Shown: piece by piece, positions 3,785 to 39,565 of the stretch
Layout: every line of letters begins with the position of its first letter
How positions within the stretch are numbered: the stretch's first letter is position 1
Origin: an uncultured Tissierellia bacterium
GTDB lineage: Bacteria; Bacillota; Clostridia; Tissierellales; Peptoniphilaceae
Length of the DNA: 42,170 bases
Direction: 5' to 3'
Assembly: GCA_902489375.1 (NCBI GenBank)
Contig: CABTZP010000001.1
Span: 1 to 42,170 of the forward strand
Made by a program: the position numbers and the translations under genes
Notes under the pieces: generated by a model
Databases searched by the model: none
What the model was told of the DNA's origin: nothing
Seen by the model: only the letters and a program-made list of their open reading frames with translations

Positions 3785-4822
3785 TTATTTTTGAATGGCC
3801 TTTTCCAAAGCTGATGATTCTTCACGAGATAGGGCCTGCTCTGACTCACCATTTTTTATGGTTTTACAGAAGATGTTCGACCCCTCCGAAGAATAAATCG
3901 AAGTCAGAAGAATCCCATCCCGATGCTCATCCAGAAGGACCAGACTAAAGGAATGCTTGCCCGAAAGCTCTTCAAAGGCGTCATACCGATTCATGCACAC
4001 CTTGGAAATGGCTAAAGAAAGTTGATCTTTGAGGAGATTTGACTGGACCTTAAGCTGCTTTTTCTGGCTTTCTTCCTGAGCGCTTAGCCTCTGTTCCGTT
4101 TCTTTTTCAATCCGGTCCATTCGATCTGTCAAATCAATGTTTGTCGACTGAAGGGCATCTCGGGTCTTTTGATCAATCGCAGAAAGACTCTGATTGACAA
4201 AAAGATCCAAATCTTCAACCGCTTGGATCCGCTCTCTTTTTTCTTCCGCCATCGCGTCATTGGTCTGTTTTTCAAAGGACTTTAAGGCCTCGGCAACCCC
4301 ATCAAAACGCACAAAGGCTTCTTCTTCATCTTTTTTCATTCTTCGGTCCAAATCATTGGTAAATTCCTGAACATGGGTCTGGACAAAAGCCGTGAGCTTC
4401 TCGATGGCCTGAATATTTTCTCCTTCAACCTGATCCATCCGGGCATAGACTTGTTCGTCCAGCCTTTTCATCTCCGAACTAAGTTTTTCTTCTGTCGAAT
4501 GAAAATCCGCTGATAACTGGCCTGTCACGGTATCAAATTTTTCATTTAGGGCCTTCGTCTTCTCTTCATTGGCAGCTTTTACCCAGGCTTCCAGATCTTT
4601 TACCGTTTGGTCGGTTTTTTCATCCTTTTCTTTAAAAAGATCAAGATCCGTTCCAAACTGAAGCAAAAGCTCTTCCATATTGACGTCTCCATGACCTCGG
4701 AGCAGATGATTATACCTTTTGTTCAACCGGTCAATTTTTGAGCGGGTATTAAAGGAAAAATAGAGGCTGGCCCCGGAAAGAAGGAAGGCAAGAATGCCAA
4801 AAATAACCATGGCCTTACTCAT
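3785..4822 (-). CDS. DUF4446-like membrane protein with a long internal coiled-coil expansion
   Basis: Start refined to ATG 4822 (AGGAGG 8 nt upstream); the track start at 4831 is a GTG abutting the RBS. It has an N-terminal TM helix followed by RLNKRYNHLLRG. The C-terminal block is RYDAFEELSGKHSFSLVLLDEHRDGILLTSIYSSEGSNIFCKTIKNGES..LSREE, as I recall for DUF4446 proteins found next to parB. About 200 aa of E/K/Q-rich heptad-like sequence lies between the two ends. The gene overlaps the parB stop by 8 nt. Confidence 0.6.
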   Translation of the reverse strand: MSKAMVIFGILAFLLSGASLYFSFNTRSKIDRLNKRYNHLLRGHGDVNMEELLLQFGTDLDLFKEKDEKTDQTVKDLEAWVKAANEEKTKALNEKFDTVTGQLSADFHSTEEKLSSEMKRLDEQVYARMDQVEGENIQAIEKLTAFVQTHVQEFTNDLDRRMKKDEEEAFVRFDGVAEALKSFEKQTNDAMAEEKRERIQAVEDLDLFVNQSLSAIDQKTRDALQSTNIDLTDRMDRIEKETEQRLSAQEESQKKQLKVQSNLLKDQLSLAISKVCMNRYDAFEELSGKHSFSLVLLDEHRDGILLTSIYSSEGSNIFCKTIKNGESEQALSREESSALEKAIQK

Positions 4823-5807
4823 TTTCTTCACCTCCTAAAAGCTTTTCCGAAAATTGATTCAGATCTTCCAGGGAATAGCAGGCAATTTGAATGTCCCAGC
4901 CTTTCTTTCGAGAACAAATGGTCACCGGCGTGCCCAAAGTCTCTGACAATCGCTCTTCCAGATCTTGAATAAAGATATTATTTTTTTTCTTTTTTAGGCT
5001 GGCTGCGCTCATCTTTTTTTCAGCGGCATTTACATTCAGTTTTCCCGTAAGAAAAAGATCTCGGATTTTTCCTCTCTTTTTTAAATCCGGCTCAGAAAGG
5101 AGGGTCCTGGCCTGCGAAGAAGAAAGCTTCCCCTCAATAAGGGCTTTTTTGGAAAGATCATCTAAGGAATCCAGACGGCTGATGTTAGCAATATATGCCC
5201 TTGATTTTCCCAAAAGCCTTGCTAAGGCTTCCTGGGTGAGCGCATGGTCCGCCATAATTTCCTTATAGGCCTGAGCCTCCTCCAAAGGATTGAGATTCTC
5301 CCTTTGAATATTTTCCACCACAGAAAGAAGTGCCCCTTTCTTTTGGCTGTCCCTGCGGATCATCACCGGAATTTCGCGTAATCCCGCCTCTTTGGCTGCC
5401 CGGTACCTTCTCTCCCCCGCAATGATAAGATACGGGGCGTCCCCTTCCTCCCTCGGATGTTTTTCTAAAACAACAATCGGCTGCAAGAGCCCATATTTTT
5501 TAATCGAATCAGAAAGCTCTTTTAACGCCTCCGGATCAAAATGCTTCCTCGGCTGATCCGGATTCGGCGAAATCTGCTCTAATGGAAGCATTTGGGTCAA
5601 AAGCTCGGTTTGCGTCTGATCTCTTTGAGGTCTTTTTTTCTGGGCGGATTCCTTTTCTTTATCCTGGATCGGCTTTTCTGCCTTTGAATCCTTTTTTTGT
5701 CCCTCCTCAGCCCTCTTTTGCTCTTCCGAAAGCGTATTTTCTTCTTTTTCATCAGGATCGGGAATCAGAGCCGCTAATCCCCGTCCCAGTCCTCGTTTTT
5801 TGGCCAT
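4815..5807 (-). CDS. parB: Chromosome partitioning protein ParB/Spo0J
   Basis: The N-terminal MAKKRGLGRGLAALIP peptide, the GERRYRAA box and an HTH region (LTQEALARLLGKSRAYIAN) are present. About 60 aa of K/E/Q-rich linker is inserted after the N-terminal peptide. Confidence 0.92.
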   Translation of the reverse strand: MAKKRGLGRGLAALIPDPDEKEENTLSEEQKRAEEGQKKDSKAEKPIQDKEKESAQKKRPQRDQTQTELLTQMLPLEQISPNPDQPRKHFDPEALKELSDSIKKYGLLQPIVVLEKHPREEGDAPYLIIAGERRYRAAKEAGLREIPVMIRRDSQKKGALLSVVENIQRENLNPLEEAQAYKEIMADHALTQEALARLLGKSRAYIANISRLDSLDDLSKKALIEGKLSSSQARTLLSEPDLKKRGKIRDLFLTGKLNVNAAEKKMSAASLKKKKNNIFIQDLEERLSETLGTPVTICSRKKGWDIQIACYSLEDLNQFSEKLLGGEENE

Positions 5808-5886: not shown

Positions 5887-6675
5887 TCATTTTTTCATTT
5901 GCTCGTCTTTTCTTTTTTTCAGCTCTTTTGCCAGATTGATGTAGGCCTGAGCACCTTTGGAGAATCGATCAAAGTGAATAATACTTTCTCCATAGGATGG
6001 AGCCTCGGCTAAACGAACATTTCGTGGAATCACCGTCTTAAAAACTCGATCTCCAAAATATTTTTTTACTTCTGCTTCGACATCCTGGGCAAGATTGGTC
6101 CTTCGATCGACCATGGAGAGAAGAACCCCCTCCACCTCTAAGGCGGGATTGATGCTTTTTCTGATCATCTCAAGGGTAGAGACCAGCTGGCTGACCCCTT
6201 CCAAGGCGAAAAATTCAGTTTGAATGGGTATCAAAACGGAATCTGAAGCCGCCAGGGCATTGAGACTAAGCATCCCTAAAGAGGGGGGACAGTCGATAAA
6301 GATATAATCATACCGGTCCTTCACCGCTTCCAAAGGTTTTTTTAATCTCAGGTTTCGGTCTTCCAGACCCAGGGCTTCGATTTCAAAACCGGTCAGATCC
6401 GGACTTGACGGAATCAAATGCAGGTGACTGTTTTGGATGTCTTTTTTTGCCTGATCCATCGTCGCGTTGCCCAGTAGGACCTGATAGAGATCCGCCGTAA
6501 GAGACTCCTTATCCACGCCCAATCCCGAAGTGGTGTTGCCCTGAGGATCCATATCCAGGACCAAAACTTTTTTCTTTTTTAAGGAGGTATCGGCGAGCGC
6601 CGTGGACAGATTGATGACGGTTGTCGTTTTGCCGACCCCGCCTTTTTGATTGTACACGCTAATAATTCGAGTCAT
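5887..6675 (-). CDS. parA: Chromosome partitioning ATPase ParA/Soj
   Basis: Deviant Walker A motif NQKGGVGKTTT. Length of 262 aa and position upstream of parB fit ParA. The start ATG overlaps the cinA stop (ATGA). Confidence 0.92.
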   Translation of the reverse strand: MTRIISVYNQKGGVGKTTTVINLSTALADTSLKKKKVLVLDMDPQGNTTSGLGVDKESLTADLYQVLLGNATMDQAKKDIQNSHLHLIPSSPDLTGFEIEALGLEDRNLRLKKPLEAVKDRYDYIFIDCPPSLGMLSLNALAASDSVLIPIQTEFFALEGVSQLVSTLEMIRKSINPALEVEGVLLSMVDRRTNLAQDVEAEVKKYFGDRVFKTVIPRNVRLAEAPSYGESIIHFDRFSKGAQAYINLAKELKKRKDEQMKK

Positions 6676-7925
6676 GGTTCCATCCTTTTTTGGCCTTCTT
6701 TTCGAAGATTAATCGTTGCCCGATCAATCGCCTGGTTGCAAATGATTCGTCGAATCATCTGCCGGCCGGTGTGGAGCTGGTATTCGTAAATCTCAACTTT
6801 TTCTCCGATGCCAATGCCCAAAAAGACGTGGCCGACTTCAGCGCCTTCTGGTCCTGCGTATCCAGTTGTCGCAATGCCCACATCGCATCCCGTTTTTTCC
6901 CGCAGGCCCTTTAACATTGCCCGGCAGGTTTTCTCAGAAACGGCGGAATCCCTTTTTAAAATTTTCTCAGGAACCCCAAGGACCTTTTGCTTGGCTTCAT
7001 CACTGTACACCACAAAAGACCCTTTGAAGGCTTTCGATGCTCCCGGACAATTGACAAATCTTGATGCCACCATTCCTCCAGTAAGGCTCTCCGCCATGGA
7101 AATCGTATAGTTTCTTTTTAACAGCTCCTTTAAAAGGGTTTCCTCCCGGCTTTCTTTATTCCAGTTGATGACTTTTTCTCCCAATTTTTCCTGGACAAGT
7201 TTAAGTCCCTTGTTCAAGCATTGATTTGCTTCTTCTTTGGTCTTTGCCTTCGCCGTAATGCGAACAAGGGCACCATCTGGCTTGACGTAGGGAGCAAAAG
7301 TAGGATTGGTGAAATTTTCCATTACGTATTCTAGCTCTTTAAAAAGCTGATATTCCCCAAGCAACCCCACCTTTACCTCCATAGAAAGGGTTGCAGCTTT
7401 GGCATGGTCCATTAAAGCCGGAACTAAGGCTAAGTCGACCATAGGCTCAAATTCGTCCGGTGGGCCTGGCAAAATGACAATGATTTTGTCTTTTCCATAG
7501 GCCTGAAAGGGAATCCATGCTCCAGAAGAGGTCCCGACAGTATTTTTTAATATTTTTGAACCCTGGGGAAAGATATAGGTTCTTTCTTCATCTTTTATGG
7601 ACTCAATATCCCCTTTAAAGAAGGCGGCAATTTGTTTTTTGCTCCCTTCGTCAATTTCCGTAGGAAGTCCAACGTATTGCAGAACGATGTTTTTGGTAAT
7701 ATCGTCATTCGTTGCGCCAAGGCCCCCCGACGTAATAACCATGTCCGATCGGGAAACGGCTAAATCCAGTGCCTTCAACAGCCTTTGATCATTGTCGCCA
7801 ACAACCTGAGTATGATAGACATCGTAGCCGAAGCTCGCCAGTATTCGACTCAGATACTGAACATCCGTATTAACGATATCGCCTAAAAGAAGTTCGGTTC
7901 CTACAGAAATGATTTCTACAATCAT
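6672..7925 (-). CDS. cinA: Competence/damage-inducible protein CinA (MoCF-binding domain plus PncC nicotinamide-nucleotide amidase domain)
   Basis: 417-aa ORF. The N-terminus MIVEIISVGTELLLGDIVNTD and the C-terminal SMAESLTGG...GYAGP motif are typical of full-length CinA. Confidence 0.88.
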   Translation of the reverse strand: MIVEIISVGTELLLGDIVNTDVQYLSRILASFGYDVYHTQVVGDNDQRLLKALDLAVSRSDMVITSGGLGATNDDITKNIVLQYVGLPTEIDEGSKKQIAAFFKGDIESIKDEERTYIFPQGSKILKNTVGTSSGAWIPFQAYGKDKIIVILPGPPDEFEPMVDLALVPALMDHAKAATLSMEVKVGLLGEYQLFKELEYVMENFTNPTFAPYVKPDGALVRITAKAKTKEEANQCLNKGLKLVQEKLGEKVINWNKESREETLLKELLKRNYTISMAESLTGGMVASRFVNCPGASKAFKGSFVVYSDEAKQKVLGVPEKILKRDSAVSEKTCRAMLKGLREKTGCDVGIATTGYAGPEGAEVGHVFLGIGIGEKVEIYEYQLHTGRQMIRRIICNQAIDRATINLRKEGQKRMEP

Positions 7926-8016: not shown

Positions 8017-8038
8017 GGGATACTTTTAAAAAATAGAC

Positions 8039-8064
8039 CGGAATGTTTCATATGAAACATTCCG
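8039..8064. promoter_or_regulatory. parS-like palindrome 1 (26-bp perfect palindrome containing TGTTTCATATGAAACA)
   Basis: CGGAATGTTTCATATGAAACATTCCG is a perfect inverted repeat. Its 16-bp core (8045-8060) matches the parS consensus TGTTNCACGTGAAACA at 14 of 16 positions; the central CG is replaced by TA. Confidence 0.55.
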
Positions 8065-8142
8065 GGAAAATTTAATTGAAATAGGGATGATTTTGCTTTC
8101 CTTGAAACAAAATGGGCAATCAAACAAGTCTTTTCGAAAAAA

Positions 8143-8158
8143 TGTTTCATATGAAACA
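8143..8158. promoter_or_regulatory. parS-like palindrome 2 (TGTTTCATATGAAACA)
   Basis: Exact second copy of the 16-bp palindrome, flanked by A6 on the plus strand (T6 on the minus strand). Confidence 0.55.
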
Positions 8159-8184
8159 AATGATGAGTTCGAACAGGGCGTTCA

Positions 8185-8200
8185 TGTTTCATATGAAACA
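8185..8200. promoter_or_regulatory. parS-like palindrome 3 (TGTTTCATATGAAACA)
   Basis: Exact third copy of the 16-bp palindrome, 42 bp centre-to-centre from copy 2. Confidence 0.55.
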
Positions 8201-8250: not shown

Positions 8251-8967
8251 TTAAATTAATGGGGCCTTTTTCACGCGGCCTCGTCCGCGGGGATATTCCT
8301 TTGGCGTCTCTTTTATTTTTATAATTTCGATCAGCATCCGCTGATAAGGTTCCTCTGACCAGGAAAAAATGTCTACCCGGCCCAGCTCTCCCCCAAGCAA
8401 GCTAATCGCTTTTTTTCCTTCTATAAGCTCTTCTTCTCCGGCGGGTCCTTTCATCGCAATAAAAGATCCGCCAACCCTTACGGCCGGAAGGGCATATTCC
8501 AGGAGGCTGGGAAGGGGCGCAAGGGCTCTCGAAACAGCAAGGTCAAAACTTTCCCGGTAAAGAGGGTCCTGGAAAAGATCTTCGGCCCGTCCATGAATCG
8601 CTTCTGTTCTTTCTAATTGAAGATCCTCTATTACCTGATCGAGAAAATCAACCCGCTTTTTTAAACTGTCTACCAAAGTCATCGAAAACTGAGGATTCCA
8701 AATTTTCATCGGAATTCCCGGAAATCCGCCGCCGCTTCCGATATCAACAACGGATCCTGATGAGGGAAGATCAATTAACCGAAAGACGCTTAGAGAGTCG
8801 AGAAAGTGTTTGCGATTAATTTCCTCCGGCGTCGAAATTCGGGTAATATTCATTTTCTTATTTCCTTCAATGATCCGGTCCCGGTAAAGAGCAAAGCGCT
8901 TTTCCTGGTTGGGCGTAAGGAAGAAGCCCAGGTCACGGCACTGTTCTGCAAAATCGCTATTTTTCAC
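8251..8967 (-). CDS. rsmG: 16S rRNA (guanine527-N7)-methyltransferase RsmG/GidB
   Basis: SAM-binding motif DIGSGGGFPGIP. Start refined to GTG 8967 (GGAGGG RBS 6 nt upstream); the track start at 9009 lies 53 nt inside mnmG. Confidence 0.88.
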   Translation of the reverse strand: MKNSDFAEQCRDLGFFLTPNQEKRFALYRDRIIEGNKKMNITRISTPEEINRKHFLDSLSVFRLIDLPSSGSVVDIGSGGGFPGIPMKIWNPQFSMTLVDSLKKRVDFLDQVIEDLQLERTEAIHGRAEDLFQDPLYRESFDLAVSRALAPLPSLLEYALPAVRVGGSFIAMKGPAGEEELIEGKKAISLLGGELGRVDIFSWSEEPYQRMLIEIIKIKETPKEYPRGRGRVKKAPLI

Positions 8968-10861
8968 TCTTTGCCCTCCGAACCTGCTCGAGGTAGATAA
9001 GAAGAACATTGATGTCCGCTGGAGAAACGCCGGAAATTCGGGAGGCCTGGCCTACAGATTCCGGTTTAATGGCATTTAGCTTTTGAGCCGCTTCCTTTTT
9101 AAGGCCAAAGATGGTCCGATAATCTTCGATGCTTAGCCTTCTTTCTTCCAGCTTTTTAAATTTTTCAATCTTCATCTCTTCTTTTTTAATATAACCCTCG
9201 TACTTGATCTCCGTTTCCAGCTCCACTTGAATTTCCAGAGGAAGATTAGGCCGGTCCGGATCAAGGGGAGATAGGCTCTCATAGGAAAGCTCCGGCCGCT
9301 TTAAAAGTTCCGCCAGGCTCTGTCCCTTTTTCAGGGGAGCGGATCCCTGTTTTTCCAGCCAGCCATTGACCCTTTCCGTAGGATTGATGGAAAGATCTGA
9401 AAGACGATCCCTTTCCTTTTGAAGGAGCGCTTTTTTTTGAATCATCAGCTCATAGCGCCTGGGAGAGACCAAGCCAATTTGATAGCCGAGTTCCGTTAGC
9501 CGAAGATCAGCATTATCCTGCCGAAGACTGAGCCGGTATTCACAGCGGGAGGTCATCATCCGGTAGGGTTCATTCGTTCCCTTGGTGACCAGGTCATCAA
9601 TTAAAACACCAATGTAGGCTTGACTTCGGTCTAAAATAAAGGGTTCCTTTCTGTCAATCAGGAGGGCGGCATTGATGCCCGCCATGAGTCCCTGCCCAGC
9701 TGCTTCCTCATAACCGGAAGAGCCATTGATCTGACCGGCGAAAAAAAGCCCCCGAAGCTTCATATACTCCAGGCTCCTCGATAAGGTTCTGGCATCAATG
9801 CAGTCATACTCAATCCCATAGGCGGGACGCATGATTTCCGCCTTTTCCAAGCCAGGGACGGTGCGAACGTACATCTCCTGAATTTCCAAAGGCAGGGTGG
9901 AGCTGAGTCCATCCACATAGATTTCATCGGTCGATGCCCCTTCCGGCTCGAGAAAAATCTGATGGTGTTCATGGTCTGGGAAACGGACCATCTTATCTTC
10001 AATGGAAGGGCAGTAGCGGGGGCCAACTCCGTGATCTTCTCCGGAATACATGGTCGCCCGAGTGAGATTTTCTTCGATAATCTCTCGGGTTTTCTGATTG
10101 GTATGGGTCAGGTAACAGGGAATCTGCTTTTCGGCATCATAGACCTGATCCTGATTTAAAAAGGAGAAGGGAATAATGCGCTCGTCTCCTTTTTGAATCA
10201 AGGTCTTTGAATAATCAATACTTCTCTTGTTAACCCGGGGCGGAGTTCCCGTTTTAAAGCGCATCAAGGGAAGGCCCATTTCCCGCAGACTATCCGTTAA
10301 ATAAAGAGAGGGCTTTTGCCCATGGGGACCGGAAGAATAGGTGAGTTCACCCATAAGGATTTGTCCGTTAAGAAAAGTTCCCGTGCAGACAATGACGCAT
10401 TCGCAGGGATAATAGGCTCCCTGGACGGTTTCTACCCCCAAAATTTTCTGATCGTCATGATCAATTCGTTTGACTTCGGCTTCGACCAGGGTGAGATTAT
10501 TTTCTCGTTCTATCACCCTTTTCATTTCTTCATGATAGCGCCTTTTATCCGCTTGGACCCGAAGGGAATGAATCGCCGCGCCCTTTGAAAGATTCAGCAT
10601 CCGAGACTGAAGGAAAGTCCGATCAATCGTCAGGGCCATCTGACCGCCTAAGGCGTCAATCTCCCGGACCAGGTGTCCTTTTCCCGTTCCGCCGACATTG
10701 GGATTACAGGGCATATCGGCGACAGATTCCAGGCTGATGGAAGAAAGAATTGTCTTTTTCCCTAAACGAGCCGCGGCCAGCGCGGCTTCACACCCCGCAT
10801 GACCCGCACCAATAACAAAAACGTCGACCGGGTCTTTTTTAAATGCTTTCAGCTTTTTCAT
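8957..10861 (-). CDS. mnmG: tRNA uridine 5-carboxymethylaminomethyl modification enzyme MnmG/GidA
   Basis: FAD motif VIGAGHAGCEAA. The length and conserved blocks (GTTPPR-like TGTPPRV, GQINGSSGYEEAA) fit MnmG. The likely start is ATG 10861 (MKKLKAF), just downstream of the mnmE stop. Confidence 0.93.
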   Translation of the reverse strand: MKKLKAFKKDPVDVFVIGAGHAGCEAALAAARLGKKTILSSISLESVADMPCNPNVGGTGKGHLVREIDALGGQMALTIDRTFLQSRMLNLSKGAAIHSLRVQADKRRYHEEMKRVIERENNLTLVEAEVKRIDHDDQKILGVETVQGAYYPCECVIVCTGTFLNGQILMGELTYSSGPHGQKPSLYLTDSLREMGLPLMRFKTGTPPRVNKRSIDYSKTLIQKGDERIIPFSFLNQDQVYDAEKQIPCYLTHTNQKTREIIEENLTRATMYSGEDHGVGPRYCPSIEDKMVRFPDHEHHQIFLEPEGASTDEIYVDGLSSTLPLEIQEMYVRTVPGLEKAEIMRPAYGIEYDCIDARTLSRSLEYMKLRGLFFAGQINGSSGYEEAAGQGLMAGINAALLIDRKEPFILDRSQAYIGVLIDDLVTKGTNEPYRMMTSRCEYRLSLRQDNADLRLTELGYQIGLVSPRRYELMIQKKALLQKERDRLSDLSINPTERVNGWLEKQGSAPLKKGQSLAELLKRPELSYESLSPLDPDRPNLPLEIQVELETEIKYEGYIKKEEMKIEKFKKLEERRLSIEDYRTIFGLKKEAAQKLNAIKPESVGQASRISGVSPADINVLLIYLEQVRRAKSEK

Positions 10862-15832: not shown

Positions 15833-17293
15833 ATGAATGAAATGACGATGATTTGGGATGAAGTCATCTCTATGCTTAATCTCAAATTGAATAAGATCCA
15901 GCTGAAAAATTGGATTCAGCCCTTAGTCCCTCTTTACCAAGAAGAAGATCTTTTTGTTTTTGATTCCACTTCCTCTTTTATCCGTTCAATGGTCCAAAAA
16001 AATTATCAGGATAAAATTGAAGAGTGCCTTTCCTATATCTGTCAAAGACCCATTCATATGGAGATGATTGATCCTTCTTCGCCCCGATATGAGAAGGATC
16101 TCAATAAAGCTAAGCTTTTTCAAAATCAGCAAAAGGAAGAACAAAGAAAAGAAGGCTTTGAGGACTTTGATCCCCGGTCTTCTGAGCGGGAAAACGAAAG
16201 AAAAAAAAAGGACCAGCTTCGCCTTTATCAGGAAAAAAATGGTTATAAAACCTTAAATCATAAATACACCCTGGAAAATTTTGTCCGCGGTCCATCGAAT
16301 GATTTTGCTTATGCCGCAGCAAGTGCCGTAATTAATCACCCAGGAAGTCTCTATAATCCTCTATTTATTTATGGACTCTCCGGCCTTGGAAAAACTCACC
16401 TCATGCAAGCCATTGCCCATGAAATATTAAAAAAAGATCCTACAAAAACCGTTTTCTACATTACCAGCGAAAACTTTATGAATGAGATGATCGCAACAAT
16501 TGAAGACGGCTCCAATAAGGAAAAAGAGAATTTTCGAAGAAAATACCGGTCAATTGACGTTCTTTTAATCGACGATATCCAGTTTATCGCCGGAAAAAAA
16601 GCAACCATGGAAGAAATTTTCCATACTTTTAATGACCTCAAAGAGGCCAATAAGCAGATTATTCTTTCCGCCGATAAGCCGCCAAAGGAACTCAAAAATT
16701 TAGAAGAACGTTTGGTTACCCGTTTCGAAGGAGGAATGACGGTAGATATCCAGCAGCCGGATTTTGAAACCCGAGTTGCCATTTTAAATCATAAAATGAA
16801 AGAGGAATCCCTTACCCTTCCCGCCTATGTCGTTGATTACATTGCTGAAAATGTTTCAAATAATATCCGGGAACTGGAGGGGGCCTTACTGAAAGTAATC
16901 GCCTACTTTCACTTTCGGAGCCGTACCATTGACCCCCTTTCGGTAGAGGAAAATATGACTTTTACCCGGGAAGCATTAAAATTAGATGAGGAAAATCCTC
17001 CTCAAATTACGATTGAAGAGATTATGACCATCGTGACGAAGTATTATCAGCTCAGTACTGATGATTTAACCTCAAAATCCAGGACTTCCTCAATTGCCTT
17101 TCCTCGTCAAATCGCCATGTATGAGGCAAGAAAGCAAACAAATCTTTCCCTGGTTGCCATCGGCCGCTCTTTTTTCCGAGACCATACTACAGTCATGCAC
17201 GCAGTAGATAAGGTCAATGAAAAAATTGCCGAAGACCCCAAGGTCAAAAATGATATTGACACCATCGAAAGGGAATTTCAGCGAAGGGGATAA
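15833..17293 (+). CDS. dnaA: Chromosomal replication initiator protein DnaA
   Basis: AAA+ Walker A GLSGLGKTHL, a box VII region, and domain IV (AFPRQIAMYEARKQTNLSLVAIGRSFFRDHTTVMHA). Domain II is expanded by a K/E/R-rich stretch. Confidence 0.95.
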   Translation: MNEMTMIWDEVISMLNLKLNKIQLKNWIQPLVPLYQEEDLFVFDSTSSFIRSMVQKNYQDKIEECLSYICQRPIHMEMIDPSSPRYEKDLNKAKLFQNQQKEEQRKEGFEDFDPRSSERENERKKKDQLRLYQEKNGYKTLNHKYTLENFVRGPSNDFAYAAASAVINHPGSLYNPLFIYGLSGLGKTHLMQAIAHEILKKDPTKTVFYITSENFMNEMIATIEDGSNKEKENFRRKYRSIDVLLIDDIQFIAGKKATMEEIFHTFNDLKEANKQIILSADKPPKELKNLEERLVTRFEGGMTVDIQQPDFETRVAILNHKMKEESLTLPAYVVDYIAENVSNNIRELEGALLKVIAYFHFRSRTIDPLSVEENMTFTREALKLDEENPPQITIEEIMTIVTKYYQLSTDDLTSKSRTSSIAFPRQIAMYEARKQTNLSLVAIGRSFFRDHTTVMHAVDKVNEKIAEDPKVKNDIDTIEREFQRRG

Positions 17294-24522: not shown

Positions 24523-24849
24523 ATGTCTTTTCATATGAAATTGGAACAAACAGAGGAGAAGATCCTCGTGATTTTGGAGGGTGATCTGGATATCAACTCT
24601 TCGCCGGAACTAAAAGAAGCAGTGATCAGGGCTTTTGAAAAATCGCCAAAAGAAATTGTTTTTGATTTTTCCCAGTTGGACTATTTGGATTCAACGGGCT
24701 TAGGGGCTTTAATGGCGATCTTTAAAGTGGCAAAAAAAGAGGGCTATTCCCTTCGCATTCGCAATGCGAAGAAAAATGTCCGAAAACTTTTTACGATTAC
24801 CGAACTAGATAAGGAATTTATCATGGAGGATCCGGATGCAGACCGTTAA
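24523..24849 (+). CDS. STAS-domain anti-sigma-factor antagonist (RsbV/SpoIIAA-like)
   Basis: 108 aa. DYLDSTGLGALM matches the RsbV phospho-serine motif (YMDSTGLG). It starts 9 nt after the gyrA stop, with an AAGGAGGA RBS. Confidence 0.85.
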   Translation: MSFHMKLEQTEEKILVILEGDLDINSSPELKEAVIRAFEKSPKEIVFDFSQLDYLDSTGLGALMAIFKVAKKEGYSLRIRNAKKNVRKLFTITELDKEFIMEDPDADR

Positions 24850-25171
24850 ATTGACGATTCCTTCTCAGCCTGAATATGTGACTACCCTTCGCCTGGTTAC
24901 CGCATCCCTGGCAAGGGGGATGGACTTTGATTATGAAGCCGTGGAAGATTTACGGGTTTGCGTTTCAGAGCTGGTGAATTACCTTTTACCTTTTAATGAG
25001 AAACTCAAAGTGATTTTCGAAGAAGAAAAGGACTGCATGAAAATTCGAATCAAAGCGGAAATGAAAGACGAAAAAAGTTCAGCCGCCCAAATGAGTCGGA
25101 TGATCCTGGAAAGTTTAATGGATGAAGTTTCTCGCGGCAAGGATGGCATTTATCTGGTAAAACACCGCTAA
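24836..25171 (+). CDS. Truncated RsbW/SpoIIAB-like anti-sigma factor lacking kinase G-boxes
   Basis: 111 aa. The N-terminal half IPSQPEYVTTLRLVTASLARGMDFDYEAVEDLRVCVSELVNYL aligns closely with B. subtilis RsbW as I recall it ([44 protein letters not shown]). The C-terminal ILESLMDEV aligns with RsbW LMETLMDEV. The G1 motif (DEG) reads AEMKD, the G2 motif (GGLGL) reads AAQMSRM, and roughly 35-50 aa of the ATP-lid region are missing. Confidence 0.7.
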   Translation: MQTVKLTIPSQPEYVTTLRLVTASLARGMDFDYEAVEDLRVCVSELVNYLLPFNEKLKVIFEEEKDCMKIRIKAEMKDEKSSAAQMSRMILESLMDEVSRGKDGIYLVKHR

Positions 25172-25181
25172 AGGAGATGGC

Positions 25182-26006
25182 ATGGCCAAGGCAAAAAAGA
25201 AAAAAACCGAAAAGCAGGAGAAAAAAGCGACGGAAGAAGCTGAATTTCTTGAGCTGAGAAAAACAGGCGACCCAAAGCTGAGAAATAAGATCATCACCGA
25301 TCATCTCTATATTGCGGAAATTTTGGCAAAGAAATACCTGAACCGGGGCATCGAATATGATGATCTTTTTCAGGTTGCCTCAATTGGTCTGATTTATGCG
25401 GTCGATCGCTATGATGTCAGCAAGGGCTATGCTTTTTCTTCTTTTGCAACGCCGACCATCATCGGAGAAATCAAGAGACATTTTCGAGACAAGGGCTGGG
25501 TGATCCGGGTACCGCGCAGAATTCAGGAACTTTCAAAAAAAATCAATCTGGCGCGAAATATTCTTTCCCAGGAACTTCAAAGACAGCCTACCGTAGATGA
25601 TATTGCCGAATATCTCAATGTCTCTGTAGAAGAAGTTCTGGAAGCGATGGAGGCTTCTCAGGTTTATTCTCCCCAATCCCTGGACAAGTCCTTTGACCTG
25701 GGTGCGGATGATCGGGAAATGAGTTTGGCCGATGTTCTGGGTCAAGAAGATGAAGGCTTCGAAGACATTGATTTTTATGACGTCGTTGAAAAACTAACGG
25801 GTCATCTTAATGATCTCGAAAAGAAAATTTTTTACTACCGGTATTACGATAAAAGAACCCAGATTTCCATTGCTGAGGAACTCAATGTTTCTCAGATGAC
25901 GGTATCGCGCATTGAAAAAAAGATCATTCAAAAGTTTCGCGATGCCCTAAATATCAGTCCGAAGGATTTAAAAAAATCCAAATCAAAGACTCATTTGACG
26001 AGCTAA
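25182..26006 (+). CDS. Group-3 sigma-70 family factor, SigB/SigF/SigG subfamily (most SigB-like)
   Basis: Region 2 reads [58 protein letters not shown]. Region 3 reads [22 protein letters not shown]. Region 4 reads [21 protein letters not shown]. The closest match I recall is B. subtilis SigB ([30 protein letters not shown]). Confidence 0.85.
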   Translation: [274 protein letters not shown]

Positions 26007-37250: not shown

Positions 37251-37754
37251 CTACCGGCGGAGAAAGTCCGCCCGGCCCGGTTCGGTCGCCGGAATTTCAT
37301 AACCGGCTTTTTGCATTTCATGAAGTTTCATCAGCAAGAGGTGAATATCGACATTTAAGATCTGGGCGATACCGACCACATCATATCCGTCTCGAGCCAG
37401 CTGTTCAATCTCTTTTTCCTCTAACAGCAAATGACAGGCAAAAAGATTCGCTTCATATTCGGTCCGGGAGCTGGCCGAAAAAAGGGTAAACGGGACAAGG
37501 TCAGCGATGCCCTCAGAAGGCCGGTGCAAAAGGGCATGGCCCAATTCATGGGCAAGAACCGTTCGCCGCTCCTGATCACCCATATTGGCATTGAGAAAAA
37601 TACAGGACCTTCCTTCAATCACGGCATACATTCCCAAGAGATTCTCGAAATCCGACCGGTTATACAAAGAAATTGACAGGGCGGAAACCAGCTCTTCCGG
37701 GTCGGAAGTCTTATACTGATCTTTCAGCCCTTGCACCATTTCTTTCATATTCAT
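37251..37754 (-). CDS. ImmA/IrrE-family (M78/DUF955) metallopeptidase
   Basis: HEXXH motif in VLAHELGHALLH, with a downstream EYEANLFACHLLL block typical of ImmA/IrrE proteases. The start overlaps the stop of the XRE gene (TAATG). Confidence 0.85.
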   Translation of the reverse strand: MNMKEMVQGLKDQYKTSDPEELVSALSISLYNRSDFENLLGMYAVIEGRSCIFLNANMGDQERRTVLAHELGHALLHRPSEGIADLVPFTLFSASSRTEYEANLFACHLLLEEKEIEQLARDGYDVVGIAQILNVDIHLLLMKLHEMQKAGYEIPATEPGRADFLRR

Positions 37755-38143
37755 TAAAATTTCTCCCGGCGGCCGTCCCAGTAGGCATCTTCCAGGGCTT
37801 TCATGACAGCATCCTTATCCCGGCTGGAAAGCTTGCCTCCGGAAAACATGGCCTGGGCCTGCCGAATCAGAGTCTCGGCCTGGATTTTCCCGTCTTCCTT
37901 TTCCCACATCGCATGCATCTCTTCTTCTTCATTCTCAACGAACAGGTAATTGAGGCGGACATGGAAAAGCTCTGCCATTTTTTCATAGGTTTCCCGGCTT
38001 TTGGGATAGGACTGGCCGGATTCATAGGAACCGACCGTTCGGGTGGATACGCCGATTTTTTCTCCCAGAGCGCGTTGGGTCAAACCGGCCTTTTTTCTCA
38101 GCGCTTTGATTTTTTCTGCAAAGGTCACAGGATCCTCCTTCAT
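37754..38143 (-). CDS. XRE-family helix-turn-helix transcriptional regulator (ImmR-like)
   Basis: HTH_3 region FAEKIKALRKKAGLTQRALGEKIGVSTRTVGSYESG. The C-terminal helical domain FSGGKLSSRDKDAVMKALEDAYW is common in ImmA-partnered repressors. The likely start is ATG 38143 (nearly leaderless); the track start at 38218 would run into the promoter/operator region. Confidence 0.85.
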   Translation of the reverse strand: MKEDPVTFAEKIKALRKKAGLTQRALGEKIGVSTRTVGSYESGQSYPKSRETYEKMAELFHVRLNYLFVENEEEEMHAMWEKEDGKIQAETLIRQAQAMFSGGKLSSRDKDAVMKALEDAYWDGRREKF

Positions 38144-38158
38144 GGTCGCAAAATCAAG

Positions 38159-38187
38159 AAGATAAAGTTCTTGTTTCTTCTTGACAA
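38159..38187 (-). promoter_or_regulatory. Candidate divergent promoter for the XRE-ImmA operon
   Basis: The minus strand reads TTGTCA (38182-38187), a 17-nt spacer, then TATCTT (38159-38164). Its -35 overlaps the -35 of the plus-strand promoter. Its -10 lies inside operator copy A. The predicted start is a few nt from ATG 38143. Confidence 0.4.
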
Positions 38188-38209
38188 AGGAAGATAAACT
38201 TCCTATACT
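38181..38209 (+). promoter_or_regulatory. Near-consensus sigma-A promoter reading toward the Y-family polymerase gene
   Basis: TTGACA (38181-38186), a 17-nt spacer, then TATACT (38204-38209). The spacer is entirely occupied by operator copy B. Copies C and D lie just downstream of the predicted transcription start. Confidence 0.65.
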
Positions 38210-38314
38210 GATATCCAAGAGGGGAAAGAAGAAGTTTATCTTCTTGAAGTTTACTTCTTTTTGAGGGAACTGTCAAAAGGAAAAGCGGGGGTGGGAGCAG
38301 AAAGAGAGAAGGAA

Positions 38315-39565
38315 ATGAAAAAAACCATCCTTCATGCCGATATGAATTCTTGTTACGTCTCCATTGAACAAGCTCGTCATCCCGAGTTAAAAGGAAAGGC
38401 GGTAGCGGTTGGCGGGTCAGAAAAAGATCGAAATGGGATTATTTTAGCCAAGTCAATTGAGGCGAAGGCCCAGGGAGTAAAGACCGGCGAGGTCATCTGG
38501 CAGGCCAAAGGCAAATGTCCGAACCTGATGATTCTTCCCGCTGATTTTGCGCTGTATCTGACCTATTCGAAGCTGGCTCATGCGATTTACCGGGAATACA
38601 CGGATCGGATTGAACCCTTTGGCATTGATGAATGCTGGCTGGATGTTACCGAAAGTCAGAAGCTTTTTGGAAATGGAGATGTGATTGCTGAGGAGCTGAG
38701 AAGAAGATTTCGAGAAGAGCTGGACATCACTATCTCGGTGGGAATTTCTGACAATAAAATATTTGCGAAACTCGGCAGCGATTATAAAAAGCCGGATGCG
38801 CAAACGAGAATTGATTTGGAAAATTATCAGAAAATTGCCTGGCCTCTTCCGGTAGAAGATCTGCTTTATTGCGGGCCAAGGACAAGGAAAAAGCTTCATC
38901 GCATGGGGGTGATGACAATAGGGAATCTGGCAAAGACGGACCCTTCCTTTATTCAAAAGTTTCTTGGCGTAAATGGCCTTCGCCTTTGGATTGCCGCCAA
39001 TGGAAGGGATGATACGCCGGTTGCCCGGGAAGATTTTGTCCCCCCGATCAAGTCCATCGGCTGTGGAACAACCTTTCGAAGAGATCTTAGAAATGATAAG
39101 GAAGTAAAAGGGGGACTGATTGCTTTGGCCCAGGAGCTGGAAAAAAAGCTGATCGAGAAAAAATTTTCCGGAAAAAGCCTCCACCTTTCCGTTCGAGACG
39201 GCCTGCTGGCTTATCAGGAGGCCAAAATGAACCTGGCCTATCCAGTACAAAATGCCAGCGAGCTTGCCGAAAGTGGCTTTTCTCTTTTTTGCCAGACTTG
39301 GACCTGGAAGCATCCGGTTCGGGCGATGACCCTAAGGGTCAGTGACCTTTTTCCCGAACAAACGGCCGTTCAAAGGGCCTTTTTTCCTGATTTTTTACGG
39401 CATGAAAAAAAAGAGAGATTAGGGAAAACAATTCATGAACTTCAAAAGCGATACGGCCCGCAATCGGTCCAGCCTGCGGTTATGAAAGATTTTCACCAGG
39501 CCGATCTTTTACGGCCCCGGGCGACCATGCCGTCAAATTGCTTTTCCGCGCTTCGAAAAGCCTGA
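38315..39565 (+). CDS. dinB: Y-family DNA polymerase (DinB/Pol IV-like)
   Basis: The N-terminus ILHADMNSCYVSIEQ (catalytic Asp), FGIDECWLDVT and SVGISDNKIFAKLGSDYKKPD are Y-family palm motifs. ATG 38315 is preferred over the TTG at 38261. Confidence 0.85.
   Translation: MKKTILHADMNSCYVSIEQARHPELKGKAVAVGGSEKDRNGIILAKSIEAKAQGVKTGEVIWQAKGKCPNLMILPADFALYLTYSKLAHAIYREYTDRIEPFGIDECWLDVTESQKLFGNGDVIAEELRRRFREELDITISVGISDNKIFAKLGSDYKKPDAQTRIDLENYQKIAWPLPVEDLLYCGPRTRKKLHRMGVMTIGNLAKTDPSFIQKFLGVNGLRLWIAANGRDDTPVAREDFVPPIKSIGCGTTFRRDLRNDKEVKGGLIALAQELEKKLIEKKFSGKSLHLSVRDGLLAYQEAKMNLAYPVQNASELAESGFSLFCQTWTWKHPVRAMTLRVSDLFPEQTAVQRAFFPDFLRHEKKERLGKTIHELQKRYGPQSVQPAVMKDFHQADLLRPRATMPSNCFSALRKA

Follow-up and report, generated by a model that had tools for sequence, protein, structure and literature searches.

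What is a short palindrome that equals the bacterial centromere site parS at every position except its two central bases, and does the partition protein encoded beside it match that altered center? The question is raised by a 42,170-nucleotide stretch of DNA from an uncultured Tissierellia bacterium of the Peptoniphilaceae (GenBank assembly GCA_902489375.1, contig CABTZP010000001.1, positions 1 to 42,170; hereafter the window), in which the 16-mer TGTTTCATATGAAACA occurs in three exact copies, all inside the 325-bp gap between rsmG and cinA and together spanning 157 bp. Copy 1 (8044-8059) is nearest to cinA, at about -43 to -58 relative to a candidate promoter; copy 2 occupies 8143-8158; and copy 3 (8185-8200) lies 50 nt downstream of the rsmG stop codon. 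The copies are given without strand. Fourteen of the 16 positions of TGTTTCATATGAAACA equal parS TGTTNCACGTGAAACA, these being all 14 arm positions, and the central CG is replaced by TA. The window contains no further copy, even allowing up to 3 mismatches, and shuffled sequences gave a chance expectation of 0.01 matches at up to 2 mismatches. No CG-centered parS is present within 3 mismatches anywhere in the 42 kb. The sequence common to the three copies is 17-19 nt only, so that no longer duplicated segment lies behind them. A previous sequence-only reading of this DNA, made without database searches, had reported three exact copies upstream of the par operon, a 325-bp gap, and a 14/16 consensus match with the difference limited to the central CG. 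The gene coordinates and the comparison with TGTTNCACGTGAAACA bear out the count, the location, the gap and the match; the coordinates that it gave for copy 1 (8045-8060) are corrected to 8044-8059.

The cluster stands in a genomic context expected of a chromosomal centromere. On the minus strand the gene order is mnmE, mnmG, rsmG, the 325-bp gap, cinA, parA, parB, a DUF4446 gene and pta, and the plus strand carries dnaA, dnaN, recF, gyrB and gyrA from 15833 onwards. The dnaA gene (15833-17293, plus strand), assigned from the open reading frame list and GC skew, marks the replication origin region, and the skew switches sign near 17-18 kb of the window; in the loci of relatives DnaA was identified by homology. 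The distance from the parS cluster to dnaA is 7.6-7.8 kb, which is origin-proximal, as chromosomal parS sites are. A cognate chromosomal ParA and ParB are both encoded, with full domain sets and a cytidine triphosphate (CTP) motif: parA (5887-6675, minus strand; Pfam AAA_31, CbiA and MipZ) specifies a soj-type partition ATPase, and parB (4815-5807, minus strand; Pfam ParB_N, HTH_ParB and ParB_C; TIGR00180) a protein of 330 aa with PDB matches to ParB/Spo0J at E values of 1e-37 to 1e-39. No second ParB-family gene besides parB is present in the window. Pfam, NCBIfam and TIGR matches agree with the earlier assignment of rsmG, cinA, parA and parB from translations.

Comparison with relatives separates what is constant in these sites from what varies. 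The relatives were fetched loci encoding ParB homologs of decreasing identity, with 14-42 kb examined per genome; the nearest named relatives of the window ParB belong to Peptoniphilaceae, Anaerococcus, Helcococcus and a Tissierellia bacterium. The synteny rsmG-cinA-parA-parB-DUF4446-pta is found in most of them, with differences between rsmG and parA in three loci (L131, L213 and L214). In the rsmG-cinA gap, exact 16-mers number one in L002 and L003 (98% ParB identity), three in L004 (71%), two in L005 (59%), and three each in L006 and L215 (57% and 56%), the last two loci having in addition a one-mismatch copy inside a HAD hydrolase gene. L128 (47%) has three exact and three near copies. In the Helcococcus locus L131 (40%), which is without cinA, the one-mismatch form AGTTTCATATGAAACA occurs three times downstream of rsmG, and a fourth copy, with two mismatches, lies immediately upstream of parA. 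Each relative has 1-7 copies at up to 20 kb from parB, and the position of copy 1 is kept in L002-L006, L128 and L215. The flanks of the sites differ in every lineage while the 16-mer stays exact over 47-98% ParB identity, the pattern of a conserved site. Other members of the clade carry different centers: the rsmG-cinA gap of L132 (44% ParB identity) has one CG-centered and three TG-centered sites, Anaerococcus loci mix CG, TG, CA and TA centers, and L213 and L214 have CG-centered sites only. Orthologous sites that change only at the center of an otherwise invariant parS speak strongly for parS identity, and the three 16-mers are almost certainly the origin-proximal parS sites of this chromosome. 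The arms, the origin proximity, the orthologous conservation and the CG/TG replacement in L132 thereby uphold the earlier proposal of parS-like, selected protein-binding sites near the par operon. We regard the TA center as fixed and cognate in this lineage, and not as decay.

Copy number differs even from a near-identical strain. Compared with window positions 8044-8200, the orthologous region of the 98% identical strain represented by L002 (7698-7882) and L003 has one copy in place of three, and this single site combines the left flank of copy 3 with the right flank of copy 1. This state corresponds to a 141-bp deletion through recombination between the repeats, in which the hairpin stem extension around copy 1 (see below) was lost as well.

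The frequency of TA centers was gauged from an unbiased metagenomic sample, in which 80 ParB loci were picked solely for matching ParB peptide patterns and therefore independently of the sites. Outside the clade of the window, the centers of parS-like sites in this sample were CG in 74 cases and CA in 3, with no TA and no TG; the only clade locus sampled (L133) had three CG-centered sites and one each with TG, TA and AG. TA centers are not ordinary parS degeneracy. AT mutational bias was considered as a cause and rejected: L213, at 27% GC, keeps CG, whereas L005, at 55% GC, has TA, and GC content is thus not the driver.

The residues by which ParB meets DNA offer a correlate of the altered center. 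In the window ParB, residues 131-138 form the CTP motif GERRYRAA and residues 200-203 the helix-turn-helix motif GKSR; the protein also keeps Q162, G170, K171, S172, R173, N178 and R204, contact residues that Jalal et al. 2020 name for Caulobacter ParB (PMC7383237). The sequence-only reading had pointed to the helix-turn-helix and its recognition helix for comparison with Spo0J; on alignment the contacts there are kept, and the departures lie at two other places. S231-Q232 (codons 5112-5117, minus strand) align with Caulobacter G201-H202 of the GHAR motif, part of the secondary centromere-binding motif (CBM2), and N260 (codon AAT, 5028-5030, minus strand), found by a full-length scan for columns that discriminate site-center types, aligns with Caulobacter R227 and B. 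subtilis R206 in a helix with the pattern L-S/N-V-R. No finer covariation was found within the helix-turn-helix, where L132 (CG/TG) and L006 (TA) share their contact residues. All 120 closest ParB homologs, and the whole Peptoniphilaceae, Anaerococcus and Helcococcus clade, have S, T or N followed by Q at 201/202. According to PMC7383237, G201 is absolutely conserved in extant ParB orthologs, proteins with S, T or C at this position still bind parS, and S and T are enriched among binders of both parS and the Noc-binding site (NBS). S201/Q202 was rejected as a sufficient switch: L213 and L214, with S-Q or N-Q, have CG-only sites, and ParBs with G-Q have CG sites only.

The R227-equivalent position divides the clade by site center. 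Of the 80 non-Noc ParBs in the unbiased sample, 79 have arginine there. Asparagine is present in all six sampled TA-only lineages of the clade (the window, L004, L005, L006/L215, L128 and L131), in which 20 of 20 sites are TA-centered, whereas five clade relatives with Arg or Gln have nine CG, five TG and one TA center (Fisher p = 6e-9, uncorrected for phylogeny). Among the 120 homologs the residue is Asn in 52, Arg in 58, Lys in 5, Gln in 3, and Ser and Ala in one each. In a rough neighbor-joining tree Asn appears in two groups, and a subclade with K, Q, S or R, including L132, is nested among Asn sequences, indicating that the residue changed more than once. The Caulobacter study states that each DNA-contact residue was changed to alanine, and R227A, V226A, E230A and R234A appear in the plasmid list of its supplement (PMC7383237). 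At the ‘DNA-gate’, Caulobacter L224, three residues before R227, forms a cross-link with its symmetry-related counterpart (PMC8367383), which places the R227 helix at the dyad. The R227 position is at the DNA interface. Arginine usually pairs with guanine and asparagine with adenine, and the same chemistry may apply at the R227-equivalent position. From the covariation we infer a shift of preference from C.G to T.A, and centromere and ParB may have changed together.

The 16-mer is also found outside this clade. An exact-16-mer scan, with one genome per species, returned at least 120 loci, the matches listed not reaching the lineage of the window itself. Among these matches, 26 include a gene for ParB, RsmG, MnmG, DnaA or gyrase in the 8-kb segment retrieved, and 51 carry at least two parS-like sites. 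TA-centered copies frequently stand among canonical ones, as in Christensenella (L108), Lachnospiraceae (L047, L114 and L123) and many Patescibacteria. Viral contigs, scanned as a control, yielded 119 loci; 4 of these have two or more sites, and none has a ParB gene. Several individual loci merit description. In a Christensenella metagenome-assembled genome (L108:2059-2920, beside mnmG) ten parS-like sites lie in about 860 bp, TA- and CG-centered alternating. In Burkholderia sp. Bp8963 (L066:4083-6302, beside mnmG-rsmG-parA) seven parS-like sites (five TG, one TA and one CG) recur every 357-375 bp, a spacing suggestive of a tandem array of ~370-bp units with one site each. Clusters in Patescibacteria loci, from Kaiserbacteria, Saccharibacteria, Minisyncoccia and Sungbacteria (L096, L038, L103, L046 and L028), have 3-6 TA-centered parS-like sites, sometimes with additional CG or CA copies. 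No ParB gene was found beside the TA-rich clusters of Patescibacteria, Saccharibacteria and spirochaetes within the 8-kb loci, even by profile search. Other ParBs encoded beside TA-centered sites have A-I (L094:5376-6431, Christensenella) or G-T (L110:1764-2693, Oscillospiraceae) at 201/202, with the L-S/N-V-R Arg retained in each.

Copy 1 is distinguished from the other two by its surroundings. It forms the center of a 28-nt perfect palindrome (8038-8065; CCGGAA, the 16-mer and TTCCGG), longer than the 26 bp given by the sequence-only reading, and on the minus strand this is followed by TCTATTTTTT (8037 to 8028). The terminator scan marks it as a candidate intrinsic terminator of rsmG: the RNA would fold into a 12-bp stem (-18.8 kcal/mol, z -6.0) with parS at the tip, and among the three copies only this one has the features of an intrinsic terminator. 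For copies 2 and 3 (z -0.3 and -1.4) the fold is not more stable than that of shuffled sequence, copy 2 forming no significant hairpin outside the 16-mer, and the left flank of copy 3 is the one that persists in the single-copy L002 and L003. The suggestion that copies 1 and 2 could both double as rsmG terminators therefore stands for copy 1, with its T-run, and falls for copy 2. Orthologous hairpins with a T-run occur in L004, L006 and L132, with the differing stem extensions GCCAGAG, AAAAAGAA and GCCACCCCAAAA and fold energies of -23.0, -19.1 and -34.4 kcal/mol; in L005 a separate hairpin abuts the site. In four lineages (window 8038-8065, L004:4355-4384, L006:7707-7738 and L132:7691-7730) the terminator-like hairpin that follows rsmG has a parS site at its tip; the stem extensions vary yet stay complementary, and the site embedded in L132 is the canonical CG form.

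At a distance of 27 nt from copy 1 lies a candidate extended -10 element for cinA-parA-parB (TGATATAAT, minus strand, 8016 to 8008), read from the sequence and identical in L002 and L004; the earlier claim of such an element adjoining copy 1 holds. A consensus promoter scan found no paired -35 and -10 for cinA-parA-parB. In L005 (7893), L006 (7962), L128 (7922) and L132 (7941) a TGnTATAAT extended -10 and the ribosome-binding site of cinA enclose a parS site, a placement typical of a roadblock or repressor site. The window and L004 differ, their closest site being upstream of the -10. Because sites adjoin or lie inside candidate cinA promoters, autoregulation of cinA-parAB by ParB is plausible. 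More speculatively, ParB bound at copy 1, just upstream of the -35 position, could modulate both read-through from rsmG and transcription of cinA-parAB.

The explanation that best accounts for the whole is that the palindromes are parS sites and that a co-varying ParB has shifted its central preference towards TA, and we favor it with modest confidence. The sequence-only reading had offered altered central-base specificity and a tolerated variant centromere as two options; the former now appears better supported, through the Asn that replaces a near-invariant Arg in all TA-only lineages, with canonical ParBs beside TA-only clusters remaining on the other side. If TA were merely tolerated, the sites would serve the same parS function, ParB would read the center weakly, TA would have been fixed by drift or gene conversion, and the changes in ParB would be unrelated; this is a credible explanation, to which we assign a lesser but substantial probability. 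It would account for the mixtures of TA, TG/CA and CG in single clusters with canonical ParB, as in L108 (five TA and four CG with at most one arm mismatch), L047, L114, L123 and L055, for the mixture of all center types in Anaerococcus, which belongs to the same clade and has Arg, and for the published tolerance of S, T or C at 201 mentioned above. It would not lead one to expect that 96% of centers in the unbiased sample are CG, nor that the Asn-type lineages have 20 of 20 TA centers without TG/CA intermediates down to 40% ParB identity, and the pattern is not explained by GC content. Several observations nevertheless weigh against a shifted preference. Canonical ParBs (G-H and Arg) are encoded beside TA-only clusters in L126 (three sites) and L080 (two sites), and others beside mixed TA/CG clusters, so that Asn is not needed for TA sites to exist. 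S-Q alone is no switch, given that only CG sites occur in L213, whose ParB shares the sequence SSSQAR. In Noc proteins the R227-equivalent residue is K or S though their site is CG-centered, and a simple rule that Arg reads G is thus not established. The covariation is drawn from one family-level clade and a rough neighbor-joining tree, and the 14-42 kb covered per genome leave room for canonical sites elsewhere in these genomes. A stronger form of the shifted preference would be a natural specificity switch in a primary chromosomal ParB, in which the change of R227 to Asn on a permissive S-Q background allows efficient loading only at CATATG-centered sites and discriminates against canonical parS, an orthogonal pair having arisen in one Bacillota family; we advance this tentatively, as less likely than not.

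Two further explanations dispense with parS function altogether. The palindromes might be operators of another transcription factor acting on cinA or nicotinamide adenine dinucleotide (NAD) salvage genes, with a coincidental likeness to parS, as their placement around the candidate promoter, and between the -10 and the cinA ribosome-binding site in four relatives, would allow. This is very improbable: all 14 arm positions equal the parS consensus, unrelated phyla have the 16-mer clustered together with canonical parS at origin and par loci, some additional copies are in coding sequence and not near promoters (e.g. the HAD hydrolase gene copies in L006 and L215), and no candidate regulator gene is adjacent. 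At least as improbable is a purely structural role, as terminator hairpins or a repetitive extragenic palindromic (REP)-like repeat with no protein partner. The strong hairpin and T-run of copy 1 suit such a role, which is contradicted by the poor folding of copies 2 and 3, by a 16-mer that is invariant across species while the stem extensions change, the opposite of a pure hairpin constraint, and by the lack of any other copy in 42 kb. A dispersed REP-like repeat was rejected for the 42 kb of the window, in which only a 16-19 nt core is shared and no further copy occurs. A Noc-binding site (tATTTCCCGGGAAATa palindrome, bound by Noc with Q173, K179, K184 and R201) was also rejected: the arms keep G at half-site position 1 and A at position 6, and the only ParB-family protein encoded in the window keeps R173.

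If the sites are parS with a shifted center, partition in this bacterium would be expected to proceed as in characterized ParABS systems. Recognition of the 16-mers by ParB dimers would involve the helix-turn-helix and neighboring helices. The dimers would then close as clamps in a CTP-dependent manner, slide outwards and spread; the resulting partition complex would be acted on by ParA, and probably also by SMC, the origin being thereby organized for ParA. The residues changed in ParB would face the center of the palindrome, namely the clade-wide S-Q in place of G-H and, in the TA-only sublineages, Asn (N260) in place of Arg. Copy 1 would also serve as the part of the stem nearest the loop in the terminator-like hairpin that follows rsmG.

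The remaining genes of the region have the following features. The first operon gene, cinA (6672-7925, minus strand; Pfam CinA, MoCF_biosynth and CinA_KH; NCBIfam PRK00549), encodes a competence/damage-inducible protein of the nicotinamide mononucleotide deamidase family and overlaps parA by 4 bp. It fills the slot between rsmG and parA, where many Bacillota carry noc. The rsmG (gidB) gene (8251-9009, minus strand; Pfam GidB, TIGR00138) would have its transcript end at the copy-1 hairpin. Downstream of parB is the DUF4446 gene (3785-4831, minus strand; Pfam DUF4446), a usual neighbor of spo0J/parB in Bacillota, whose synteny is kept in all relatives; its product of 348 aa has a long, coiled-coil-like N-terminal extension with a weak apolipoprotein match. 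ParB itself has a Lys/Glu/Gln-rich insert of about 55 residues (17-70) between the N-terminal ParA-interaction peptide and the CTP domain. A nicotinate phosphoribosyltransferase gene (847-2307) lies 2.5 kb past the par operon, and NAD-salvage genes bracket the operon clade-wide. Directly after gyrA, at 24523-26006, there follow a STAS-domain protein, a 111-aa open reading frame without Pfam match and a sigma-70-family factor, an arrangement like that of spoIIAA/spoIIAB/sigF. At 37251-39565, genes for an XRE-family helix-turn-helix protein and an M78 (ImmA/IrrE) peptidase are divergent from a Y-family DNA polymerase gene, resembling a damage-response module.

The kind of element is known, and a lineage-fixed variant of its center tied to changes at the ParB interface appears undescribed. 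In the literature searched by sequence no mention of a TA-centered chromosomal parS was found, the 16-mer, the 14-mer core and the TG form matching one unrelated paper on thermophilic antibiotic-resistance markers, and a search linking parS or ParB with Peptoniphil* returned nothing. Chromosomal parS and the DNA-reading residues of ParB are usually regarded as near-invariant in bacteria, and a family-level clade would break both rules. The clade would then constitute a natural experiment in which centromere and binding protein drift together with segregation retained, the center tracking one interface residue. An orthogonal ParB-parS pair might find use in chromosome labeling. For genome annotation, motif searches that demand CACGTG would return ‘no parS’ for these genomes.

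Among known systems, the nearest is the chromosomal ParABS of Bacillus subtilis, Caulobacter crescentus and Thermus thermophilus (parS tGTTNCACGTGAAACa), with which the window shares the arms of the 16-bp palindrome, the clustering of sites close to the origin and next to parAB, and a ParB/Spo0J-type protein with the domains ParB_N, HTH_ParB and ParB_C, the CTP motif GERRxRA and the kept contact residues. It differs in having TA at the center of every site, S-Q for G201-H202, and Asn for the R227-equivalent Arg. The parS sites of model species tabulated in a 2020 review are all CG-centered, except for a Streptomyces coelicolor entry printed CACCTG (PMC7022226). In the Noc/NBS system, as described by Jalal et al. 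2020 (PMC7383237), symmetric half-site differences similarly accompany changes of interface residues, and the order of events proposed there, with permissive changes followed by switching ones, is a possible model here, S-Q being clade-wide and followed by Arg to Asn. The differences of Noc, a paralog with a new function, concern half-site positions 1 and 6 and depend on residues 173, 179, 184 and 201; unlike Noc, the window has its change at the central position 7, keeps R173, has its differences at residues 201/202 and the 227-equivalent, and encodes no second ParB-family protein. Systems with a secondary centromere-binding motif, in which SopB R219 reads G7 of sopC, and KorB T211 and R240 act on OB, with CBM2 defined as GHA(R/K)(A/V)LL (Sanchez et al. 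2013, PMC3597684), resemble the window in that residues outside the helix-turn-helix read bases by the palindrome center, the CBM2 of the window being SQARTLL against GHARALL. Unlike in those systems, the CBM2 arginine is kept in the window ParB, and the residue that tracks TA is found in the next helix. Naturally occurring pairs of ParB and parS with diverged sites are also known from Burkholderia chromosome 2 (gTTTATGCGCATAAAc) and from ParB2-parS2 of Vibrio cholerae; those variants of multipartite genomes belong to secondary replicons, have widely diverged arms and coexist with a canonical system, whereas the sites described here belong to a primary chromosome and differ at the center only.

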